Positions 32,300 to 63,921 of a stretch of 64,000 nt of DNA are shown here, one piece after another; position 1 is the stretch's first letter; every line of letters starts with the position of its first letter. The stretch is from IMG/VR virus record IMGVR_UViG_3300005529_000026, positions 30,357 to 94,356 of that record; one strand, 5' to 3'. This DNA is from a virus. Made by a program: the position numbers and the translations under genes. The notes beneath the pieces are model-generated. The model was not told where the DNA came from, made no database searches, and saw only the letters and a list, made by a program, of their open reading frames with translations.

Positions 32300-32413
32300 C
32301 GCCGCTCTACCAAAACTTGCGAATGAAATGCACAGCCGTGTAAATCACCCCGGCCCAGAATGTCAGCCAGAGAAGAACCGGCGTCAGCATCACGCCTAGT
32401 GCGAACAAGCCGC

Positions 32414-32926
32414 CTATAATGCTTCCTCGATTGTTGTTGCGCATAACTCCTCCATTGATTTGATGTACTGATACTTGCGCTTGTTAAACTGCTTTTGTGT
32501 TCGTCGTTCGTGACAGTTTGCGCAGCGTACTTCACATTTTGCTATCTCTGCTGTTATTGCCTCTAAGCCGCAAGCAGTCATGCCTGTAACATCGCGCTTC
32601 TTCTCGCCAGTAACGTGGTCGAACTCAAGCACCAACGGGTCAGCTTCGTCACAATCCACACATGGGTGTGTGGTCAGGTATTCCATCATGTAGGCGAATG
32701 CGCGGGAGCGGCGTTCTACGCTTTTAGCGCTGCGGTATTTCTTGCGGTCAATTTCCGGGTCTGCCTTTTTCCTAGAGGCGTGAATACCTTTGAAGCACTG
32801 CCTGCACTTTGACTGACGCCGCCCTTTCTCCCTGTTCTGGAAGGCAAAGTCATCATCAGGCTTGTTATGATTACAGCCGTTGCAGATTTTCAAAGAAATA
32901 GTTTGGCGGGCATTGCACCCCGCCAA
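32414..32926 (-). CDS. HNH endonuclease (homing-type) downstream of tmRNA
   Basis: CxxC...CxxC, PCVDC, LEFDH, KCEVRCANCH..RT; start uncertain. Confidence 0.85.
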   Translation of the reverse strand: MAGCNARQTISLKICNGCNHNKPDDDFAFQNREKGRRQSKCRQCFKGIHASRKKADPEIDRKKYRSAKSVERRSRAFAYMMEYLTTHPCVDCDEADPLVLEFDHVTGEKKRDVTGMTACGLEAITAEIAKCEVRCANCHERRTQKQFNKRKYQYIKSMEELCATTIEEAL

Positions 32927-33250
32927 GGGCGTTGAGGAACTGAGTCGCCGTCACTCAGTGCGTTAGCTGCTGATTAAGCAGCCGCCGCAGCCATAGCCAA
33001 AGGCTTGGCAGTTGTTTTTGTCCGCTGATTACGTCAGTCGGCTCACGGATTCGTCCATAGCACCTTCAACCAACCCGTCGAAACTTGGCACGCCCATCAA
33101 AGCCGCTCAGCCCATCTATCGCATGATGGCAGTCCCTAGAAGCACAGGTGCGCTTAACTGTCCGGGTCTGTTGTTCTGAGCGGCTATGGTGGACGTGGCG
33201 GGCATCGCAGCCCGCGTCCGAATCGGTAAAGCACTACTTCATACGAATCA
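32900..33250 (-). ncRNA. ssrA: Circularly permuted (two-piece) tmRNA; tag (A)AKPLAMAAAAA
   Basis: The 3' acceptor piece (GGAC-GCGGG..CCCGC-CACGUCC-ACCA, ending 33187) precedes the 5' piece (GGGCGUG..UUCGAC from 33095). G3:U70 is present, helix 2 pairs between the pieces, and the tag ORF is 33009-32974. Confidence 0.9.
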
Positions 33251-33262
33251 ATCTTGGTTGGT

Positions 33263-33454
33263 CTAGGTGTTGGCGTACATGATACCGCCGACGACCAACG
33301 TGATGACCGTGAACACGACAAGCCCAAAAACTCCGTCTGCATGCGGTCTCCAAGTACGTTTGAACGTCGCTAGGAGAGTAGCAATGAGAATGTTCACGAC
33401 ACCTACGACACCGAAAAACAGAAATGAATCCGCTAACATTCGCGGAATTGACAT
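33263..33454 (-). CDS. Small two-TM membrane protein
   Basis: GGAGG RBS; two hydrophobic helices. Confidence 0.6.
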   Translation of the reverse strand: MSIPRMLADSFLFFGVVGVVNILIATLLATFKRTWRPHADGVFGLVVFTVITLVVGGIMYANT

Positions 33455-33591
33455 AAGACTTCCTCCGACTAAAAAGGCGCGGCTTGGCTCAACCGAGACT
33501 TGCTATCGCTCTTTCGAGAACCAAGCCGTACTGCGCCTAGATTGGCTCTCGGCCCTGCACCTTCCGCGCTGTGATTTGCAGTGAACCCTCT

Positions 33592-33666
33592 AAGCGGTCA
33601 CTCAGGGAATCGAACCCTGTTCCACGTTTTCCGTGAAGTGTGTCTTACCAATAGACGAAGTAGTAG
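33592..33666 (-). ncRNA. Degenerate tRNA-like element
   Basis: Intact D arm (GUCU..AGAC) and T arm (CAGGG-UUCGAUU-CCCUG); anticodon arm and acceptor stem non-canonical. Confidence 0.5.
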
Positions 33667-33677
33667 AAGGTTGTTGT

Positions 33678-33756
33678 TGGTAGGCGAGGAAGGAGTTGAA
33701 CCTTCGACCTAGCGATTATCAATCGCTTGCTCTAAACCGGGCTGAGCTACTCGCCT
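33678..33756 (-). tRNA. tRNA-Ile(GAU)
   Basis: AGCGA-UUGAUAA-UCGCU; cloverleaf; CCA. Confidence 0.92.
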
Positions 33757-33850
33757 AAAAACTTGCGGGATTAACCAGCTTCAGGCCAATGCGCTAACGA
33801 CGCCTTGCACCAGTTGTTCCCGCGTCGGCCTGTGGGTGTTCCAAAACCAG

Positions 33851-34015
33851 TTAGCGCTCCGGCTCGGCGTATTCAGGCATATTCAGCCGCACCCTAACGT
33901 GGTCAAAACATTCAACAATCTCGACTCTTTCGTTTGGGTGCATTACCGTCTTGGGAACGATAAGCACCCCGTTATCGCCATACTGCTCAACGATTTGCGC
34001 CAAAATCTCGTTCAT
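33851..34015 (-). CDS. Small hypothetical protein (54 aa, not in ORF track)
   Basis: MNEILAQIVEQYGDNG...PER*, preceded by GAGG. Confidence 0.45.
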   Translation of the reverse strand: MNEILAQIVEQYGDNGVLIVPKTVMHPNERVEIVECFDHVRVRLNMPEYAEPER

Positions 34016-34104
34016 AGCCTGCCTCGCTGGTTTCGCTTTTCGTTCGCTAAGGCTATTCTGGCGCTCAGGTAGGTGTCAAGCACAAGATGTTGGGGGTATT
34101 TCTT

Positions 34105-34359
34105 CTAGCTATTTTCCCGACCGTCGGGGTATAGCTTGCGTTCGTCGCACTGCTCCAACAAGTTGGCGAGACTTATCATAGCTACTCGCGCTATGAAGTC
34201 GTTCGGATTAGCAAGCAGATTGCGAAGAAAGTAAGCGAACATAAAAGCGTCATCTCCGCGCACAAACGTGCCTGTCCAGTCAGTACCGAACCTCACTGGC
34301 CCGGTCTCGACACGCGGCGACTGCTCAGCCAACATGCGAACTTCAATTGGGTCGCTCAT
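34105..34359 (-). CDS. Hypothetical protein
   Basis: AGGAG RBS, ATG 34359; RVETGP..FG.DW.G.F.RGD.A. Confidence 0.6.
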   Translation of the reverse strand: MSDPIEVRMLAEQSPRVETGPVRFGTDWTGTFVRGDDAFMFAYFLRNLLANPNDFIARVAMISLANLLEQCDERKLYPDGRENS

Positions 34360-34379
34360 TGTCCGCTTCTCTCCTAGTT

Positions 34380-34464
34380 TGGTGCCGGATGAGGGACTCG
34401 AACCCCCACGCCTTGCGGCGGCAGATTCTAAGTCTGCTGTGTCTACCAATTTCACCAATCCGGC
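34380..34464 (-). tRNA. tRNA-Leu(UAG)
   Basis: GCAGA-CUUAGAA-UCUGC; long variable arm; CCA. Confidence 0.93.
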
Positions 34465-34739
34465 TAAATGTCTGCGCGTTTTGGGTTGACCGATTTCGCG
34501 CCCCACGGAATATGCTCGCCCCTTACGGACGGCTACCCCTTTCATGTTTTGCCCTAGGGTTGAATCACAACCCCCGCCTACTTACAGCTTATGCTCCGGG
34601 GCGTTTCATCCCGACCTTATAGCGCTGAAAGATTCACTGCTTTCGACTTTGCAGCTTACTTGGTTTCTCGTCTGCACATTCCTAGACGACTTTTTGCGGC
34701 TAGTCGCCCAACCGTTGCGTTGATTTTTTAGGGCAAACT

Positions 34740-34817
34740 TGGTTGCGGGCACCGGAGTCGAACCGGCTATCTTTGCGTTATGAGCGCAACATGGTTATCC
34801 GTGTCCACTCGCCCGCA
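34740..34817 (-). tRNA. tRNA with CAU anticodon (Met or Ile2)
   Basis: UUGCG-CUCAUAA-CGCAA; T arm; CCA; lacks the initiator GGG/CCC anticodon stem. Confidence 0.85.
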
Positions 34818-34921
34818 GCACTTAAAAGAATATATTTTTACGAAAGCACGTATGTAGGATAGGCGTGTTACTGACGCCTCGTTTTAAGTCTGCGCCGCAC
34901 AGTGTGCGGAGCCTTCTGGAT

Positions 34922-35048
34922 TGCTGCCCTTGGTGGGAGTCGAACCCACATTTCAGGCTGAGCAGGGTACAGGTGCTAATCCGCTTCAGGCGGGGATAGT
35001 CTGTAAAGCCCGCGACAGCCAGCGTCCTGCCAATTAGACGACAACGGC
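34922..35048 (-). ncRNA. tRNA-like RNA with a 59-nt structured segment replacing the anticodon loop
   Basis: Acceptor GCCGUUG/CAAGGGC; D arm GUCU..GGAC; T arm GUGGG-UUCGACU-CCCAC; 3' AGCA. Confidence 0.6.
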
Positions 35049-35487
35049 GTAGCGGACAACTAGCGAACCAACCCAGTTCTCCTACATCAGATTTGCCTAC
35101 CGTTCGTGTAGACCGTCGTGCGTCAACCGCGTCCTGACTCTCGTGGACTTCAGCGGCAATCTTCTCCGCTTCGTCAATCGCGGCGTGCAGAACCTGATTG
35201 GCAGTGCGTAGGGCCATCGCGGTGCCCTTCGCCCGCAGAACTTCTTCCTCGTGCAGCGCATGACGTGCGGCGGCAGAACCCTTAGCTTCGAGATTGGACA
35301 GCGTGCGCGGGAAATACTTCTTCATCACAAAAAACGCGATGACCGCGATAACTCCAAGTGCTAAAATCGTTGACATCCTCAATGTCTCCTAGAAAAGTTT
35401 AGGAGCCGGTAAGCCTCAGCCCGGCTCCCTTGATTTTTCGGGGGCGTTGCGGCCCCTCCACCAGAGGCTTGTGTGTGTGTCTACTTC

Positions 35488-36479: not shown

Positions 36480-37631
36480 TTACTGGTATTCGGTGACTTC
36501 TTTGCCGTCCTTGGCCTTGCGGAGCAGGTAGGCTTCGCTGACCGACTTCAGGATGACGCGGCCCAGCTTGGGGTCTTCCCTCTCGAACAGGGGTTTCACT
36601 ACAACCCCTTCCCGCAGGTTGACTCCACACCCAGATACCGTTTCTACGCCGTTTGTAGCCGTTTCTAGCGCCTCGCGGGTGAACTGGCCTAGGTAGACCT
36701 CTGGAACCAGTTCGAGGCCCGCAAATCGGCTCCAAAGCTGAAGTGGCCCGTAGCTGAGGAAGTGACCCTGCCCCGGCTTGCCAACGTAGATGTCAAACAC
36801 TCGGAAACCAAGGTCGGTCGCGTAGCCCAAGTCCTGAATACCGTTTCCGTAGACCTCACCGACCACGAAGATTGCCTCGATTGGAGCACTACCTTCTCCG
36901 TTGAACTCCTGCATTTTCGTGCAGAGCTTGCGGAGCTTGGATTCCAAATCGTGCTTTTTGGCAGCCCGGATGTAGGTATTCCCGGCGTTGGCCTCGTTGT
37001 TTTCGATGATGAACCCGCGTGCCCCTAGTCCCTTGCTAGAAACAGCAAACTGGTCAGTTGCAGGCCAGTACACCGCCTGCATGAGCGTGCCGTGAATCTT
37101 CTCGGTCATCACGACCGGCTCGCCTTCTTGGAAGACGCGCTTGTACGCCTTGATGTTCTCAATGTCGTACCGCAGCAGGTTGAAGTCGCCGCGAGGCCGC
37201 TGAATCTGTCCTGCAAAGTGTGCAGGGATGGGCGGCTCGTACTTCGTGACGCCCAAAACTGTTGCACAGTCTGCGCCTTCGCACAGACACAGAGTTGTGG
37301 CCCCGGCGCTTTCTCCTATCCGAGCAAGCACCTTGCTGTACGGGTAGAGCAAGCCCTGCGAAAGCGTCTTGCGCAGCTTGATGGCCTTGACGCGATTCTT
37401 GGCCGGGCCAGCCAGCTTGCCGGTCAGTCCCAGTTCTTCGAGGATGTCTACCGGCACGATAGAGCCTTCGGGGATGTAGATGGCCAAATCCCCGGAGTTG
37501 AAACTGCCTTTCTGGATGACGCACTTGTAATCCGCGACGTTCGCGGCTACGATAAAGTCTGCTCCTTCAATAGGTTGCACGTCATCCACGCGCACAACTG
37601 GGCATGCAAAATCAGCCATTCTAACCTCCAT
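36480..37631 (-). CDS. ATP-dependent RNA ligase, DRB0094/Rnl2-like family
   Basis: N-terminal OB fold (PIEGAD.I...LRKTLSQGL), EKIHGT, GEVYG.GIQ, FDI, REGVVVKP, LKSVS..YL. Confidence 0.92.
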   Translation of the reverse strand: MEVRMADFACPVVRVDDVQPIEGADFIVAANVADYKCVIQKGSFNSGDLAIYIPEGSIVPVDILEELGLTGKLAGPAKNRVKAIKLRKTLSQGLLYPYSKVLARIGESAGATTLCLCEGADCATVLGVTKYEPPIPAHFAGQIQRPRGDFNLLRYDIENIKAYKRVFQEGEPVVMTEKIHGTLMQAVYWPATDQFAVSSKGLGARGFIIENNEANAGNTYIRAAKKHDLESKLRKLCTKMQEFNGEGSAPIEAIFVVGEVYGNGIQDLGYATDLGFRVFDIYVGKPGQGHFLSYGPLQLWSRFAGLELVPEVYLGQFTREALETATNGVETVSGCGVNLREGVVVKPLFEREDPKLGRVILKSVSEAYLLRKAKDGKEVTEYQ

Positions 37632-38953: not shown

Positions 38954-39220
38954 TCATTTGCCGAGAATCTCCTTCATATCCATACCTGTTCCATTGCACG
39001 GCTGGCAGACAGCCGTACTCCACAGCAGCACGAGCGGGTTAATGTCTAGAAACCAGATGCGGCCCTGTTTATCTACGGCGTTAGGATTGGGCCTAACCCA
39101 AGTCGGGTGCCCGCCCGTTGCGCCGTACTCGTCCGTCTCTCCGGTTTTGACAAAGCCGCCTGTGATTCCAGCCTCAACCTCGCCGCGCCCTTTGCACACA
39201 GGACAAATCGGCAACATCAT
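38954..39220 (-). CDS. DnaJ-type zinc-finger protein
   Basis: CPVCKGRG...CQPCNGTG. Confidence 0.6.
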   Translation of the reverse strand: MMLPICPVCKGRGEVEAGITGGFVKTGETDEYGATGGHPTWVRPNPNAVDKQGRIWFLDINPLVLLWSTAVCQPCNGTGMDMKEILGK

Positions 39221-40356
39221 TCGCCGTCTCTCCTGAAGGACTCGTCTTTTGTGCAGTTCGGTCTAATCATCTTCCAGATGGTCGCTGTGGGGTCGCCGCC
39301 GTCTAGCATTTGAAAGCAAATCGAGGCGTACTGCCGACTCTCTGGCTGGTTGAAGTGAAACGCACACGCCTTGCGGTGCAGCCGGGTGTCTCCGTTGTGT
39401 ACGGGTCGGTTGATGTAAACTTCGTGTGCCGTTTCTAGAATCCGGTGGTATTCGTGGTCGAGCTTGTCACGCCACTCCGTGAGCCAAGCACGGAAATGCT
39501 CTGGCATGGTCTCATCGTTAATCCAAACGCGAATCTGGTCGTCTTTGCCTTCGGACATCAACTCCCAAACCGCTCTAGGATTCACGCCCGTCACGATGCG
39601 GTGTAGTCGAACATAGTCCTCGAATTTCACCTTAACCTTGACGGGCGGGCATGACGAGCCACGCGAGTAGGTCAGCACATATCCTTCGCGCCCGGCTTCA
39701 TTTTCAGTGGCAACCTCAGACAATGATTTCGAGTAACGCTGAACGACACGGACACCATTTGCTTTGGCCCACTTCCACAGTTCTTCGTAACCCATTTCCG
39801 CCCCGGTTCGGATGTTCACCATTCCGGTCAGAATGCACGTCTCGAAGTCGTACTTGCACACGATGCGGTTTTCGTCGTAGATAATCTCGAACAGAGGCGT
39901 CCAGCCTTCAGGCCACACCATGAACGAAAATGGGATAGGTTCGCGCTTCGCACGCAGCCAGTTAGTCGCCCACTTCGCCTGCGGGGAAGTGAACGAGCCG
40001 CGAGTGGCTATGCCGACGTACTCGCCGTACTGGTAAAGAATTCCTAACGAGCCGTCTAGCTTTTCTAGAACCAAAGGCTGAACGTTAGGTAGATTCGCTT
40101 CCATCGTTTCGGGAATAGAAGCGGTGTTGAGGTTGTGGAATTTCTTGTACGGGCGTGCAATGACGTTCCCTTGCTTGTCTACAATTAGTCCACGGCAATA
40201 ATCAATTGTGCCGTCACCCCAAGTCCCATAAATCTGGGCGTAGGGCGTGTAGTTGTAGATTTCAAGAGGAAGTTCAGGATGCTGCTGAACGGAAATTAGC
40301 CCGTTATCAATGTGCTGCTTGAGAAGGTTAACATCGAGCAGTTGAGAGATGAGCAT
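39217..40356 (-). CDS. T4 Rnl1-type RNA ligase
   Basis: IYNYT, CRGLI, RPYKKFHN, EKLDGSL, TRGSF, FEII, REGYV, KVK..DY; likely start ATG 40356. Confidence 0.92.
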   Translation of the reverse strand: MLISQLLDVNLLKQHIDNGLISVQQHPELPLEIYNYTPYAQIYGTWGDGTIDYCRGLIVDKQGNVIARPYKKFHNLNTASIPETMEANLPNVQPLVLEKLDGSLGILYQYGEYVGIATRGSFTSPQAKWATNWLRAKREPIPFSFMVWPEGWTPLFEIIYDENRIVCKYDFETCILTGMVNIRTGAEMGYEELWKWAKANGVRVVQRYSKSLSEVATENEAGREGYVLTYSRGSSCPPVKVKVKFEDYVRLHRIVTGVNPRAVWELMSEGKDDQIRVWINDETMPEHFRAWLTEWRDKLDHEYHRILETAHEVYINRPVHNGDTRLHRKACAFHFNQPESRQYASICFQMLDGGDPTATIWKMIRPNCTKDESFRRDGE

Positions 40357-41210
40357 TTTGACCAATTCTCCGGCGCGGGCAGGGTCTTCTTGAGTTGAAG
40401 ACCTTCTTCCTTGGCACTGTCCATGTGCGCAATTTCTCTGACGGTATATTCCCGCCAGCACAGCGGGTGTCCGGTACGTGCAGGGCTTACAACTGAATCG
40501 AATTGCTTTGTCGTAAGGATGGTTTTCGCAACGAACGCAGCGGAGCCGTCTGACTGCGGGAATACTTCTCCCATTACTACGCCGTCGCGGTTGTGCCATG
40601 CCCAGCCACGCTCGCCGCAGTAGAGCAGGCGCATCGTCTCGCCCCCAACCGGGAAGCGGAATGCACGAGTACGCTGCTCTAGGCGTTTGTTCATGTGATT
40701 CGTGACGATGAACCTGATAAGTTGCATTTTGGCCCCCTAGCTCTGCCCAAATCCTTCCGCAGTCCACACCCAATGTAAAAGCTGGCGCGGTGTGCAGTTC
40801 AACGCTAAGCTATTGTCCACGGCAAGCGCCATGACGAAGCCGACAGGTAGAAGCACGGCTGCGATAGCGCGAAAGGGAAGACCGAGATAGCGACCGATGA
40901 TTTTGAGCACCTTCATTTCAGTTCCTCCAAGATGTGCCACACGAGACCATTTGCATCTTGCAATGTGGCAATGCAGTCGTAGGTTTTAGAGCTATCTCCG
41001 AACGGGACGCCGGTAAAGGCAACGATAATCACCCTAGGAACCGTTGGCTTGGCGTCGAAATCGTCTGGGTGAATCTCCCAAAGAATGAGATTGCCGCGCT
41101 GGATTTGAACGTCCAGCACGGCAGCCTTCGGGTGTAGTGGGAGAAGGTACGTTCCGACTTGAAACGGCAACTTGTGCTTGTGGATGACATTCTCAACGAT
41201 GCGCGACATT

Positions 41211-44427: not shown

Positions 44428-45531
44428 CTACGCCTTGTTCCACCATTTTCCTCTCTCCTTTGCGGATGTTGGTTGCAGCGGAATTTCCGCTAATCTCTCG
44501 AAAACCGCCGATACTTCCGGCTTGATAAGCTCGCGTGTGAACCTGTATTCGCCTTTCTTGTAAGTCACCGCAACGATTTCGTTTGGCCCGGCTTGACCAG
44601 AAGAAGCTAGGCGAGCTAGAGGCTGAACAATCTTTCTCTCGATGACACGGTTCAGTTCTCGTCCGCCATATTCTGCGTTGTAACCCTCGTCCAGCAGGGC
44701 TTTCTTGGCTTCCTTCGAGAATGTGACAAGGAACCCTTTGCCAGATTTCAAAATCCGTTCCTGAACTTTCGCTAGTTCTAGTTCAAGGATTTGCTCGATA
44801 TCAGTCTTCGTCAGCGTGCGGAACACCACCATCTTGTCAATGCGATTCATAAACTCCGGCGAGAACTTGCGCTTCGCCGCAGCGATGGCGGTGCTTTCTA
44901 CTTGTGAGTGGTGGGCGTCGTCCGCAGCGAATGACTGCGTGCCGAAGCCAAACTGTGAGCCTTGCAGTTTCGCAATGTCACCAGCGCCGACATTGGAAGT
45001 CATAAAGATGAAGGTGCGGGAGAAGTCCACGCGACGGTTATCACCCATCGTGAGAGTGGCCTTGTCCATGATTCCCAACATCAACTTCCAAAGCGCATCG
45101 CTTGCTTTTTCGATTTCATCAAACAGCAGCAGAGAAACCTTCAAAGAATCGGTGTGCCAGCGGTCAAGCAGGTCTTGAGCTAACGCGGGGTGAGTCTCGC
45201 GGTGCCCTAGATAACCGGGCGGTGAGCCAATGAGCTTGCAGATTTCGTGGCTGTGCTGGAATTCTGAGCAATCAATTTTGAGCACTGCGCCGGGGTCGCC
45301 GTAGAAAGATTCCGCAACTGCTTCCACGAGGCGCGTCTTGCCGGTGCCGGTCGGCCCTAGGAACATCAAAGTTCCCAGCGGTCGGTTTGGCTTGTTCATC
45401 CCTGCCAAGTAGGTCTCGTACATCTCAACCATGCGAGTAACGGCTTCGTCTTGGCCGATAACCCGCGCATGCAGGTCGGCTTCTAGCTTCAGGGCTGACT
45501 CGCTGCGAATGTTGGGATTAAGAATTTCCAT
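44428..45531 (-). CDS. Stand-alone ClpA/ClpB D2-type AAA+ ATPase
   Basis: VIGQDEA, GPTGTGKT, LIGSPPGYLG, LLFDEIEKA, PEFMNRID, YGGREL; no N or D1 domain. Confidence 0.9.
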   Translation of the reverse strand: MEILNPNIRSESALKLEADLHARVIGQDEAVTRMVEMYETYLAGMNKPNRPLGTLMFLGPTGTGKTRLVEAVAESFYGDPGAVLKIDCSEFQHSHEICKLIGSPPGYLGHRETHPALAQDLLDRWHTDSLKVSLLLFDEIEKASDALWKLMLGIMDKATLTMGDNRRVDFSRTFIFMTSNVGAGDIAKLQGSQFGFGTQSFAADDAHHSQVESTAIAAAKRKFSPEFMNRIDKMVVFRTLTKTDIEQILELELAKVQERILKSGKGFLVTFSKEAKKALLDEGYNAEYGGRELNRVIERKIVQPLARLASSGQAGPNEIVAVTYKKGEYRFTRELIKPEVSAVFERLAEIPLQPTSAKERGKWWNKA

Positions 45532-63682: not shown

Positions 63683-63878
63683 TTTTTGCCTCCCGAATCA
63701 ACTGACTTTGACCTTTTTTCTGCTAAATCATTGCATCTACAAGCATTATACTTGCACTACAAGTCATTCAATGCGGCAGGCTAACTGCTTGACCGTATTG
63801 AATAAACCCTTCGTATCCTACAAATTGCAATGTTTTTGCAGAGTATCACAAGCAATCGCGTTGCGTCAATCGCAAGCA

Positions 63879-63921
63879 ATTGATTAAGAGTCAGTTGCTC
63901 TGCCAGTTGAGCTACGCGCCC
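63879..63921 (-). pseudogene. 5' half of tRNA-Lys(CUU); probable att site
   Basis: GGGCGCG-UA-GCUC..GAGC-A-ACUGA-CUCUUAA-UCA, then no T arm or acceptor 3' strand; about 200 bp from the integrase start. Confidence 0.8.

Follow-up and report, generated by a model that had tools for sequence, protein, structure and literature searches.

The window analysed here is a stretch of 64,000 nucleotides (nt) of IMG/VR virus record IMGVR_UViG_3300005529_000026, corresponding to bases 30357–94356 of a 94,356-bp record that was rated complete by CheckV. On its minus strand, positions 33249–32904 read as a circularly permuted (two-piece) transfer-messenger RNA (tmRNA) gene. We put at about 0.6 the probability that this is an apparently working two-piece tmRNA gene of a siphophage most likely infecting Acidobacteriota, in a family descended from alphaproteobacterial-type permuted genes that circulate among phages. 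A phage-encoded permuted tmRNA had been proposed in the initial annotation of this DNA, and the Rfam model for permuted tmRNAs (RF04321, tmRNA_permuted) matched 33249–32974 over its full length (model positions 1–213) with 83.4 bits (E = 1.8e-14), well above the cut-off of 47 bits.

Anatomy of the gene

The gene order is acceptor piece, spacer and coding piece, which is the reverse of the order in one-piece tmRNA (RF00023). The following parts were assigned, with the basis of each assignment in brackets.

33187–33249, minus strand: acceptor piece, 63 nt (sequence, RF04321 alignment, cofolding and family comparison)
33249–33220, minus strand: helix-2 3′ strands in the acceptor piece, followed by GGAC (same basis as the acceptor piece)
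33215–33198, minus strand: T-arm GCGGG/CCCGC with an 8-nt loop, CUGCGAUG (sequence)
33197–33191, minus strand: acceptor 3′ strand CACGUCC, followed by A73 and an encoded CCA at 33189–33187
33096–33186, minus strand: spacer of 91 nt, presumed to be removed on maturation (sequence, cofolding and precursor fold)
33048–33095, minus strand: 5′ end of the coding piece (RF04321, cofolding, family comparison and loop comparison)
33022–33047, minus strand: predicted pseudoknot 1 (CGUGAG / CCGA / CUGACG ... CGG) and A-rich leader ACAAAAACAACU (by eye)
32974–33009, minus strand: tag frame from resume codon GCC to UAA, encoding AKPLAMAAAAA (the RF04321 alignment ends at the UAA)
32966–32982, minus strand: helix 5 (GCUGC-UUAAUCA-GCAGC) with the stop codon in its loop (sequence)
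32939–32960, minus strand: 3′ hairpin CACUGAGU-GACGGCG-ACUCAGU (sequence and comparison with a relative)

The acceptor 5′ strand, GGGCGUG (33095–33089), opens the coding piece; paired with CACGUCC it gives G3:U70, and the alanine identity elements G3:U70, A73 and CCA end are all present. This 5′ end also includes CCAAGU-UUCGAC, the analogue of the D-loop, and the 5′ strands of helix 2 (33076–33048). The spacer is closed by a perfect 10-bp stem, in which AGCCGCUCAG (33185–33176) pairs with CUGAGCGGCU (33110–33101); the stem begins 1 nt past the CCA and ends 5 nt (UUGAU) ahead of G1. No open reading frame (ORF) was found within the 91 nt of the spacer (33096–33186). The UAA stop codon occupies 32976–32974. 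The acceptor piece ending at 33187, the coding piece starting at 33095 and the tag had been predicted exactly to the base, and the intervening segment with its 10-bp stem, predicted at ~90 nt, measured 91 nt. The alanine identity named in the initial annotation was likewise found in the sequence, G3:U70 being invariant throughout the family described below.

When the two pieces were cofolded, 7 acceptor pairs and the T-arm formed, together with a helix 2 that was almost continuous, at 19+7 (26) pairs, in agreement with the helix-2 pairing between pieces that had been claimed. The precursor folded at −101.8 kcal/mol (z = −5.17), a value equalled by 0/200 shuffled sequences. No sigma-70-like promoter was found at window positions 32300–35200.

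A family of homologous genes in Tunturi_4-like phages

Homologous permuted tmRNAs were found in the cultured phage Tunturi_4 and in seven related uncultured contigs, giving nine members with the window gene. The relatives L165–L167 and the metagenome loci were located through the helicase gene; the metagenome loci were screened with ARAGORN and our own pairing-based finder, so that members may have been missed. Their matches to RF04321 were as follows.

Tunturi_4 (PP885687.1 43532–43941, minus strand, in an unannotated gap): 79.2 bits
L165: 102.6 bits
L166: 92.8 bits
L167: 69.7 bits
L227, L234, L235 and L237 (metagenome loci): 49–58 bits

In 6/9 members the tmRNA and helicase genes share a strand, with the tmRNA gene 2.4–4.5 kb upstream. 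In Tunturi_4, ARAGORN called a permuted tmRNA with a 33-residue tag ending YAVAA, and the paper describing this phage (PMC11924767) makes no mention of tmRNA. The Tunturi_4 gene resembles that of the window in phage group, in its site upstream of the helicase gene and in architecture, but differs in its 154-nt spacer, canonical T-loop, longer tag and the RF-1-domain gene upstream of it. This neighbour, gp53, lies directly upstream of the tmRNA and encodes a 116-residue ‘RF-1 domain peptide chain release factor’ (ArfB-like; PP885687.1 43946–44293, L160:3447–3794); two ribosome-rescue functions therefore adjoin in Tunturi_4. No RF-1/ArfB domain gene was found in the genome of the window phage.

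Pairing was maintained across the family despite sequence change. G1-C72, G2-C71 and G3-U70 were invariant in 9/9 members, and both sides had changed in acceptor pairs 4–6 and T-stem pairs 1–2. The outer helix-2 pairing was kept in different forms (GCACGU/ACGUGC, GCAUGU/ACAUGC, GAGUGU/ACACUU and GAUUCGU/ACGAAUC), so that the helix between the two pieces covaries. In pseudoknot-1 stem 1, read by eye, both strands differed from those of L167 (AAGUAG/CUACUU) and the pairing was preserved. L167 was also the closest to the window gene in the block from pseudoknot 1 to the resume codon (27/31 identical) and had the stretch GCACUGAG(U)GACGGCG of the 3′ hairpin in common with it. An Ala resume codon after an A-rich leader, followed by an open tag frame, was kept in 8/9 members. 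The tags, 11–33 residues long, have in common the C-terminal motif (K/L)(A/T)M(A/G)(A/V)AA, as seen in the C-termini PKAMAVAA, LKAMGAAAGA, MKAMGAAAGR and PLTMAAHA beside PLAMAAAAA in the window gene. The most similar tag, ANSKPLTMAAHA of L235, is homologous to that of the window gene, and the two genes have the same acceptor stem. For other members the tag calls are those of ARAGORN. This conservation and covariation across nine members is good comparative evidence that the RNA is under selection in Tunturi_4-like phages.

A spacer stem of 8–15 bp stands at the same position, with unrelated sequences, in 8/9 members. It was rejected as a family hallmark, since alphaproteobacterial and betaproteobacterial genes have (shorter) stems too. 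The 119-nt spacer of L234 (L234:13051–13169) has tRNA-like elements, namely a T-arm GGCGG-UUCAAUC-CCGCC and a D-arm-like GUAGCUCAGUAGACAGAGC, arranged as though a tRNA-shaped module occupied the excised segment. An additional ‘standard tmRNA’ called by ARAGORN in L167 lies inside an ORF and was dismissed as spurious.

The carrier phage and its likely host

The phage genome encodes a terminase, portal, major head protein, family-A DNA polymerase, ribonucleotide reductase, primase-helicase, helicase and two RNA ligases. Its portal was 52.8% identical to that of the Tunturiibacter phage Tunturi_4, an 88-kb siphovirus of Acidobacteriota from Finnish tundra (PMC11924767). Because Tunturi_4 is the only cultured phage with a close portal, we take the window phage to be most likely a soil siphophage with an acidobacterial host. 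That this assignment draws on one cultured relative, at 53% portal identity, counts against it. The 15 portal relatives in IMG/VR were fragments without tmRNA. BLASTN of the gene and the surrounding 20 kb against INPHARED phages gave no match, and an exact-pattern scan of IMG/VR for the T-arm plus acceptor gave 0 matches.

The initial annotation had seen no smpB and had argued that host SmpB would be used. This view was extended from the window to the full genome, as an SmpB domain was found nowhere in the 94,356 bp; the phage would thus need host SmpB.

The two RNA ligase genes (PHROG 968 and PHROG 562; window 36480–37631 and 39217–40773) lie among tRNA genes, 3–7 kb upstream of the tmRNA. 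Homologues of the first, 35–45% identical, are found a few kb from the tmRNA in the Caulobacter phages CcrPW and CcrColossus. Two Rfam tRNA matches were not called by ARAGORN: one of 39.4 bits at window 34925–35048 (124 nt), a tRNA with a large insertion, and a marginal one of 30.7 bits at 63853–63921. An AAA+ protein of 367 residues (window 44428–45531) is not ClpX: it has AAA_2 and ClpB_D2-small domains and is a stand-alone protein whose best match is the second ring (D2-type module) of ClpB/ClpA. As it was also absent from four related phages, and no ClpP was found in the phage genome, a connection with the tag was discarded.

Relationship to known two-piece tmRNAs

Two-piece tmRNA arose in alphaproteobacteria, in a betaproteobacterial group and in cyanobacteria (PMC3968760). 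Two-piece forms accounted for 53/133 unique phage tmRNAs (Buchholz et al. 2022, PMC9004378), and the tmRNA database holds 79 phage sequences and 11,946 permuted sequences, with five ‘Permuted (beta)’ entries under Acidobacteriota in its Table S2 (PMC11915505). The novelty assumed in the initial annotation was therefore lost, because phage two-piece tmRNAs have been published (PMC9004378) and are present in cultured Caulobacter phages; the window gene looks like a diverged member of that pool. Melnitz, a phage of OM43, carries an alpha-type two-piece tmRNA, its host being argued to stand outside the alpha lineage (PMC9004378). We liken Melnitz to the window phage by its published description. 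Melnitz and the pelagimyophages are marine T4-like myophages with a glutamine riboswitch before the gene, whereas the window phage is a soil siphophage in which no riboswitch was detected.

The Caulobacter phages CcrPW (MH588545) and CcrColossus (JX100810) share more of the anatomy. Like the window gene, their tmRNA genes are phage-borne and in permuted order, acceptor piece first and coding piece second. They too encode the CCA end, combine a T-loop of the UGCGA type with AG in the D-loop, and lie among tRNA genes a few kb from a homologous RNA ligase. Four large phage contigs with a homologue of this RNA ligase were found, two of them being CcrPW and CcrColossus, and a permuted tmRNA was present in 4/4. 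The spacer of the two Caulobacter-phage genes is 81 nt with an 11-bp stem and ends ...UGAU before G1, compared with 91 nt and the same ...UGAU here, and their RF04321 scores (84–90 bits) are similar. However, their tags (VNDNDAPVMEQRLAA) resemble that of the host, and the alpha 3′ motif CAACAGAA, absent from the window gene, is retained in them. Their hosts also have a two-piece tmRNA, while the likely host phylum of the window phage has the one-piece form.

Bacterial alpha genes (RF01849) resemble the window gene in gene order, encoded CCA, hairpin spacer and non-canonical T-loop types, but their spacers are 22–82 nt long. The beta form (RF01850, Rhodocyclales) gave the best lineage-specific match, with ~68% identity over 100 nt in the tRNA-like 5′ region. 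In contrast to the window gene, however, beta genes lack an encoded A at the end of CCA, closing with ACCC or ACCU, and have canonical UUCGA T-loops in 22/22 cases.

Two observations on the beta form were made in passing. Positions 63–391 of L101 (NZ_BDAC01000014.1, Pseudomonas indica NBRC 103045) hold a full beta-type permuted tmRNA with 280.6 bits on RF01850, in a gammaproteobacterium and thus outside the Rhodocyclales, where the beta form is expected. The IMG/VR viral contigs L144 and L147 carry typical beta-type permuted tmRNAs (298 bits on RF01850), indicating that phage-borne copies have not all diverged from the bacterial lineage.

Origin of the permutation

We consider that the family probably descends from alphaproteobacterial-type permuted tmRNA genes circulating among phages, and not from a new permutation. 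Loops and motifs were compared in 30 standard, 22 beta and 11 alpha genes and 3 large-phage genes. A D-loop GG with a UUCRA T-loop was found in 30/30 standard and 22/22 beta genes. T-loops of other types were found in 11/11 alpha genes, in 2/3 large-phage genes (CcrPW and CcrColossus) and in 4/9 family members, including that of the window. Most alpha genes have the T-loop GGCRGUA, and those of Brevundimonas UGCGAUU; the latter loop is also that of CcrPW and CcrColossus, where the D-loop has AG. Within the family, the corresponding loops are UGCGA with AG in the window gene, UGCGAAU with AG in L165, UGCAAGU in L235 and GCAGAA with AG in L227. The UGCGA core and AG D-loop of the window gene thus occur also in Brevundimonas and the Caulobacter phages, and the extra base is found in the window gene only. 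The motif CAACAGAA was present in 11/11 alpha genes, CcrPW, CcrColossus and L167, and in 0/52 standard and beta genes. The composite GGGGYUCG-(8–25 nt)-CAACAGAA occurred in 9/11 alpha genes and otherwise in L167 alone, where it takes the form GGGGYUCG...GCAACAGAAG. The encoded CCA is a further character that the window gene has in common with alpha genes.

Lineage-model scores were low throughout the family. With cut-offs of 50 bits for RF01849 and 84 bits for RF01850, the best matches were alpha for L165 (60 bits) and L227 (47.8 bits) and beta for the window gene (53.5 bits) and L167 (48.1 bits), L165 being the only one of these above the alpha cut-off. Bacterial members scored 219–305 bits on the alpha model and 281–299 bits on the beta model. 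CcrPW and CcrColossus, in which alpha motifs are retained, scored 66.8 and 53.5 bits on the alpha model. As these alpha-derived genes fall in the same range, the low scores are not evidence of a new lineage; they reflect phage divergence and not a new origin.

Several results speak against alpha descent. The window gene does not have the CAACAGAA motif, and its best lineage-specific clan match is the beta model, below that model's cut-off, and not the alpha model. Canonical T-loops are found in Tunturi_4 and L166, for which fragments of the standard model are the best clan matches. Nothing was resolved by identities in the tRNA-like domain or by a 66-sequence IQ-TREE tree: phage sequences were scattered on long branches with support of at most 82, and those of the Caulobacter phages stood no closer to alpha genes.

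Two further indicators were set aside. The slightly higher identity of the window gene to beta genes is not evidence, because the beta set was biased towards this sequence, having been gathered in species genomes with the pattern TTTCGACNGGNNGGNNNAAGGTG, which returned mostly Rhodocyclales beta tmRNAs and chance matches in coding DNA. Nor was the match between the L166 5′ end and host tmRNA accepted as marking a lineage: its 22 identical nt prove little, as the first 21 nt of the Tunturi_4 gene are identical to a Marinobacter tmRNA.

The initial annotation had suggested an independent permutation in a phage. This would be a fourth, phage-born permutation of a one-piece tmRNA, for example one captured from an acidobacterium, by tandem duplication and loss, the alpha-like T-loops and the L167 motif then being convergent or acquired by recombination. 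The likely host phylum does have the standard form only: standard tmRNA was found in 114/121 sampled Acidobacteriota genomes (112/119 when two unpublished genomes, G077 and G102, whose sequences were not drawn on, are set aside), and no genuine permuted tmRNA in 151. Acidobacterial tags include ANQNLAYAA. RF04321 matches of 52–58 bits in four Acidobacteriota genomes were judged not to be permuted genes, 3/4 overlapping the standard tmRNA gene of the genome and the fourth genome being outside the 121-genome sample. Also in keeping with such an event, the family reaches at most 60 bits on the alpha and beta models, far below bacterial members; however, the Caulobacter-phage genes with alpha motifs score equally low (54–67 bits). 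L166 is identical to acidobacterial tmRNAs in its acceptor stem and over the opening 22 nt of its coding piece, although the Marinobacter case renders 5′-end identity undiagnostic. The best clan matches of the Tunturi_4 gene are the two halves of the standard model. Nevertheless, alpha-type T-loops in 4/9 members and the alpha 3′ motif in L167 oppose a separate origin, and no unpermuted intermediate was seen among 80 related metagenome loci. The family being shared with Tunturi_4 and seven contigs and bearing alpha-lineage characters, we regard an independent permutation as unlikely.

A second copy of the T-arm also bears on this question, since a relic of tandem duplication would be expected beyond the coding piece, at the gene's 3′ end, which is where this copy stands. 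Two features are concerned.

32903–32926, minus strand: terminal hairpin, a near-copy of the gene's own T-arm (20-nt hairpin at 32923–32904; repeat search and terminator scoring)
32414–32926, minus strand: HNH endonuclease ORF (PHROG 2255, E 9e-29; likely start TTG at 32893)

The terminal hairpin and the T-arm agree at 18/20 positions, the odd 8-nt loop included. Only these two copies of the T-arm sequence exist in the genome (0.00 expected); the similarity stops before the flanks, and the copy is followed by AAACUAU, with no acceptor strand. The hairpin scored as terminator-like and is the probable 3′ end of the transcript. None of the eight relatives has a T-arm copy, and L235 has at this position an ordinary GC hairpin without an HNH gene. 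Since the copy is absent from L235 and the others and carries the derived 8-nt loop, by this comparison it is a recent local duplication in the window lineage, not a relic of the permutation. The HNH ORF lies directly downstream and adjoins the hairpin, as a neighbour and not a part of the tmRNA. The duplication may be connected with the acquisition of the HNH gene, whose homologues in IMG/VR gave no useful information.

Proposed function

In the scheme we propose, one precursor would be transcribed, in which the acceptor stem and the stem-closed spacer would stack like a pre-tRNA. RNase P would cut ahead of G33095, and 3′ trimming would halt at the encoded CCA (33187). The 91-nt spacer would be lost, and the two pieces would be held together by the acceptor stem and helix 2. 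Host alanyl-tRNA synthetase (AlaRS) would charge the tmRNA via G3:U70 and A73, after which host SmpB and EF-Tu would bring it to stalled ribosomes. Translation would resume at GCC, appending AKPLAMAAAAA. The phage, which has tRNA and RNA-repair genes as well, may thereby gain additional capacity for ribosome rescue.

Some features fit poorly with a working gene of this kind. ARAGORN called five tRNAs in the window and did not call the tmRNA gene, probably because of the 8-nt T-loop and the G in place of tRNA U55. This loop, CUGCGAUG, with its extra base and its G at position 55, stands on an intact 5-bp T stem. The tag ends AAAAA and not the usual LAA or VAA, and tags of relatives end AGR, AGA and AHA, none of them a classical ClpX degron.

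Such features might be expected if the RNA were a decoy, mainly sequestering host SmpB, AlaRS or ribosomes and so dampening trans-translation in the host, or if it tagged proteins for a fate other than degradation. The widely varying tag lengths and C-termini (AGR, AHA, AGA and AAA), together with the aberrant T-loop, can be read in this way. L227 matches RF04321 positions 3–131 only. At L227:2731–2971, the acceptor piece, spacer stem, tRNA-like domain and helix 2 are kept and no tag frame was seen; immediately beyond stand a terminator-like hairpin and the next gene, so that this may be a tag-less two-piece tmRNA. A precedent exists in mycobacteriophage DS6A, whose tmRNA consists of the tRNA-like domain only, and a similar molecule inhibits tmRNA (PMC4131195, PMC11915505). 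However, the Ala resume codon, A-rich leader and open frame in 8/9 members, and the stop codon of the window gene in the loop of helix 5, speak against this reading, and divergent members have kept the tag motif in their protein sequences. In addition, AG in the D-loop accompanies a T-loop of the UGCRA type, a combination also seen in Brevundimonas and the Caulobacter phages, and this fits a maintained tRNA-like fold. We therefore hold a decoy or a non-degradative tag to be a rather weak candidate, slightly behind an independent permutation in likelihood.

Alternatively, the family could be functional and the window copy drifting, with a T-loop insertion, a shortened tag and a lost 3′ domain. 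The 8-nt T-loop is indeed unique in the family, the gene falls ~45 nt short of the 3′ domain of L167, and, besides the failure of ARAGORN, an HNH gene and a duplicated hairpin stand at its 3′ end. Nevertheless, the pairing is intact, with 7/7 acceptor pairs, the T stem, 26 helix-2 pairs and the perfect 10-bp spacer stem; 83.4 bits is mid-range for the family, and an open tag frame runs to a proper stop. Decay of this copy is thus improbable, the least likely of the alternatives considered, and a working two-piece tmRNA remains the reading that we prefer.

Significance

With this family, a soil clade of Acidobacteriota phages joins the carriers of two-piece tmRNA, and an unannotated two-piece tmRNA gene is recognized in the cultured phage Tunturi_4. 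The comparison also provides a benchmark for lineage models, in that low scores on the alpha, beta and cyanobacterial Rfam models do not indicate a new lineage; as a practical caution, ARAGORN can miss such genes. Since Tunturi_4 is cultured, bench work in Tunturiibacter could address how the RNA is processed, whether host SmpB serves it across phyla and what becomes of the unusual tags.

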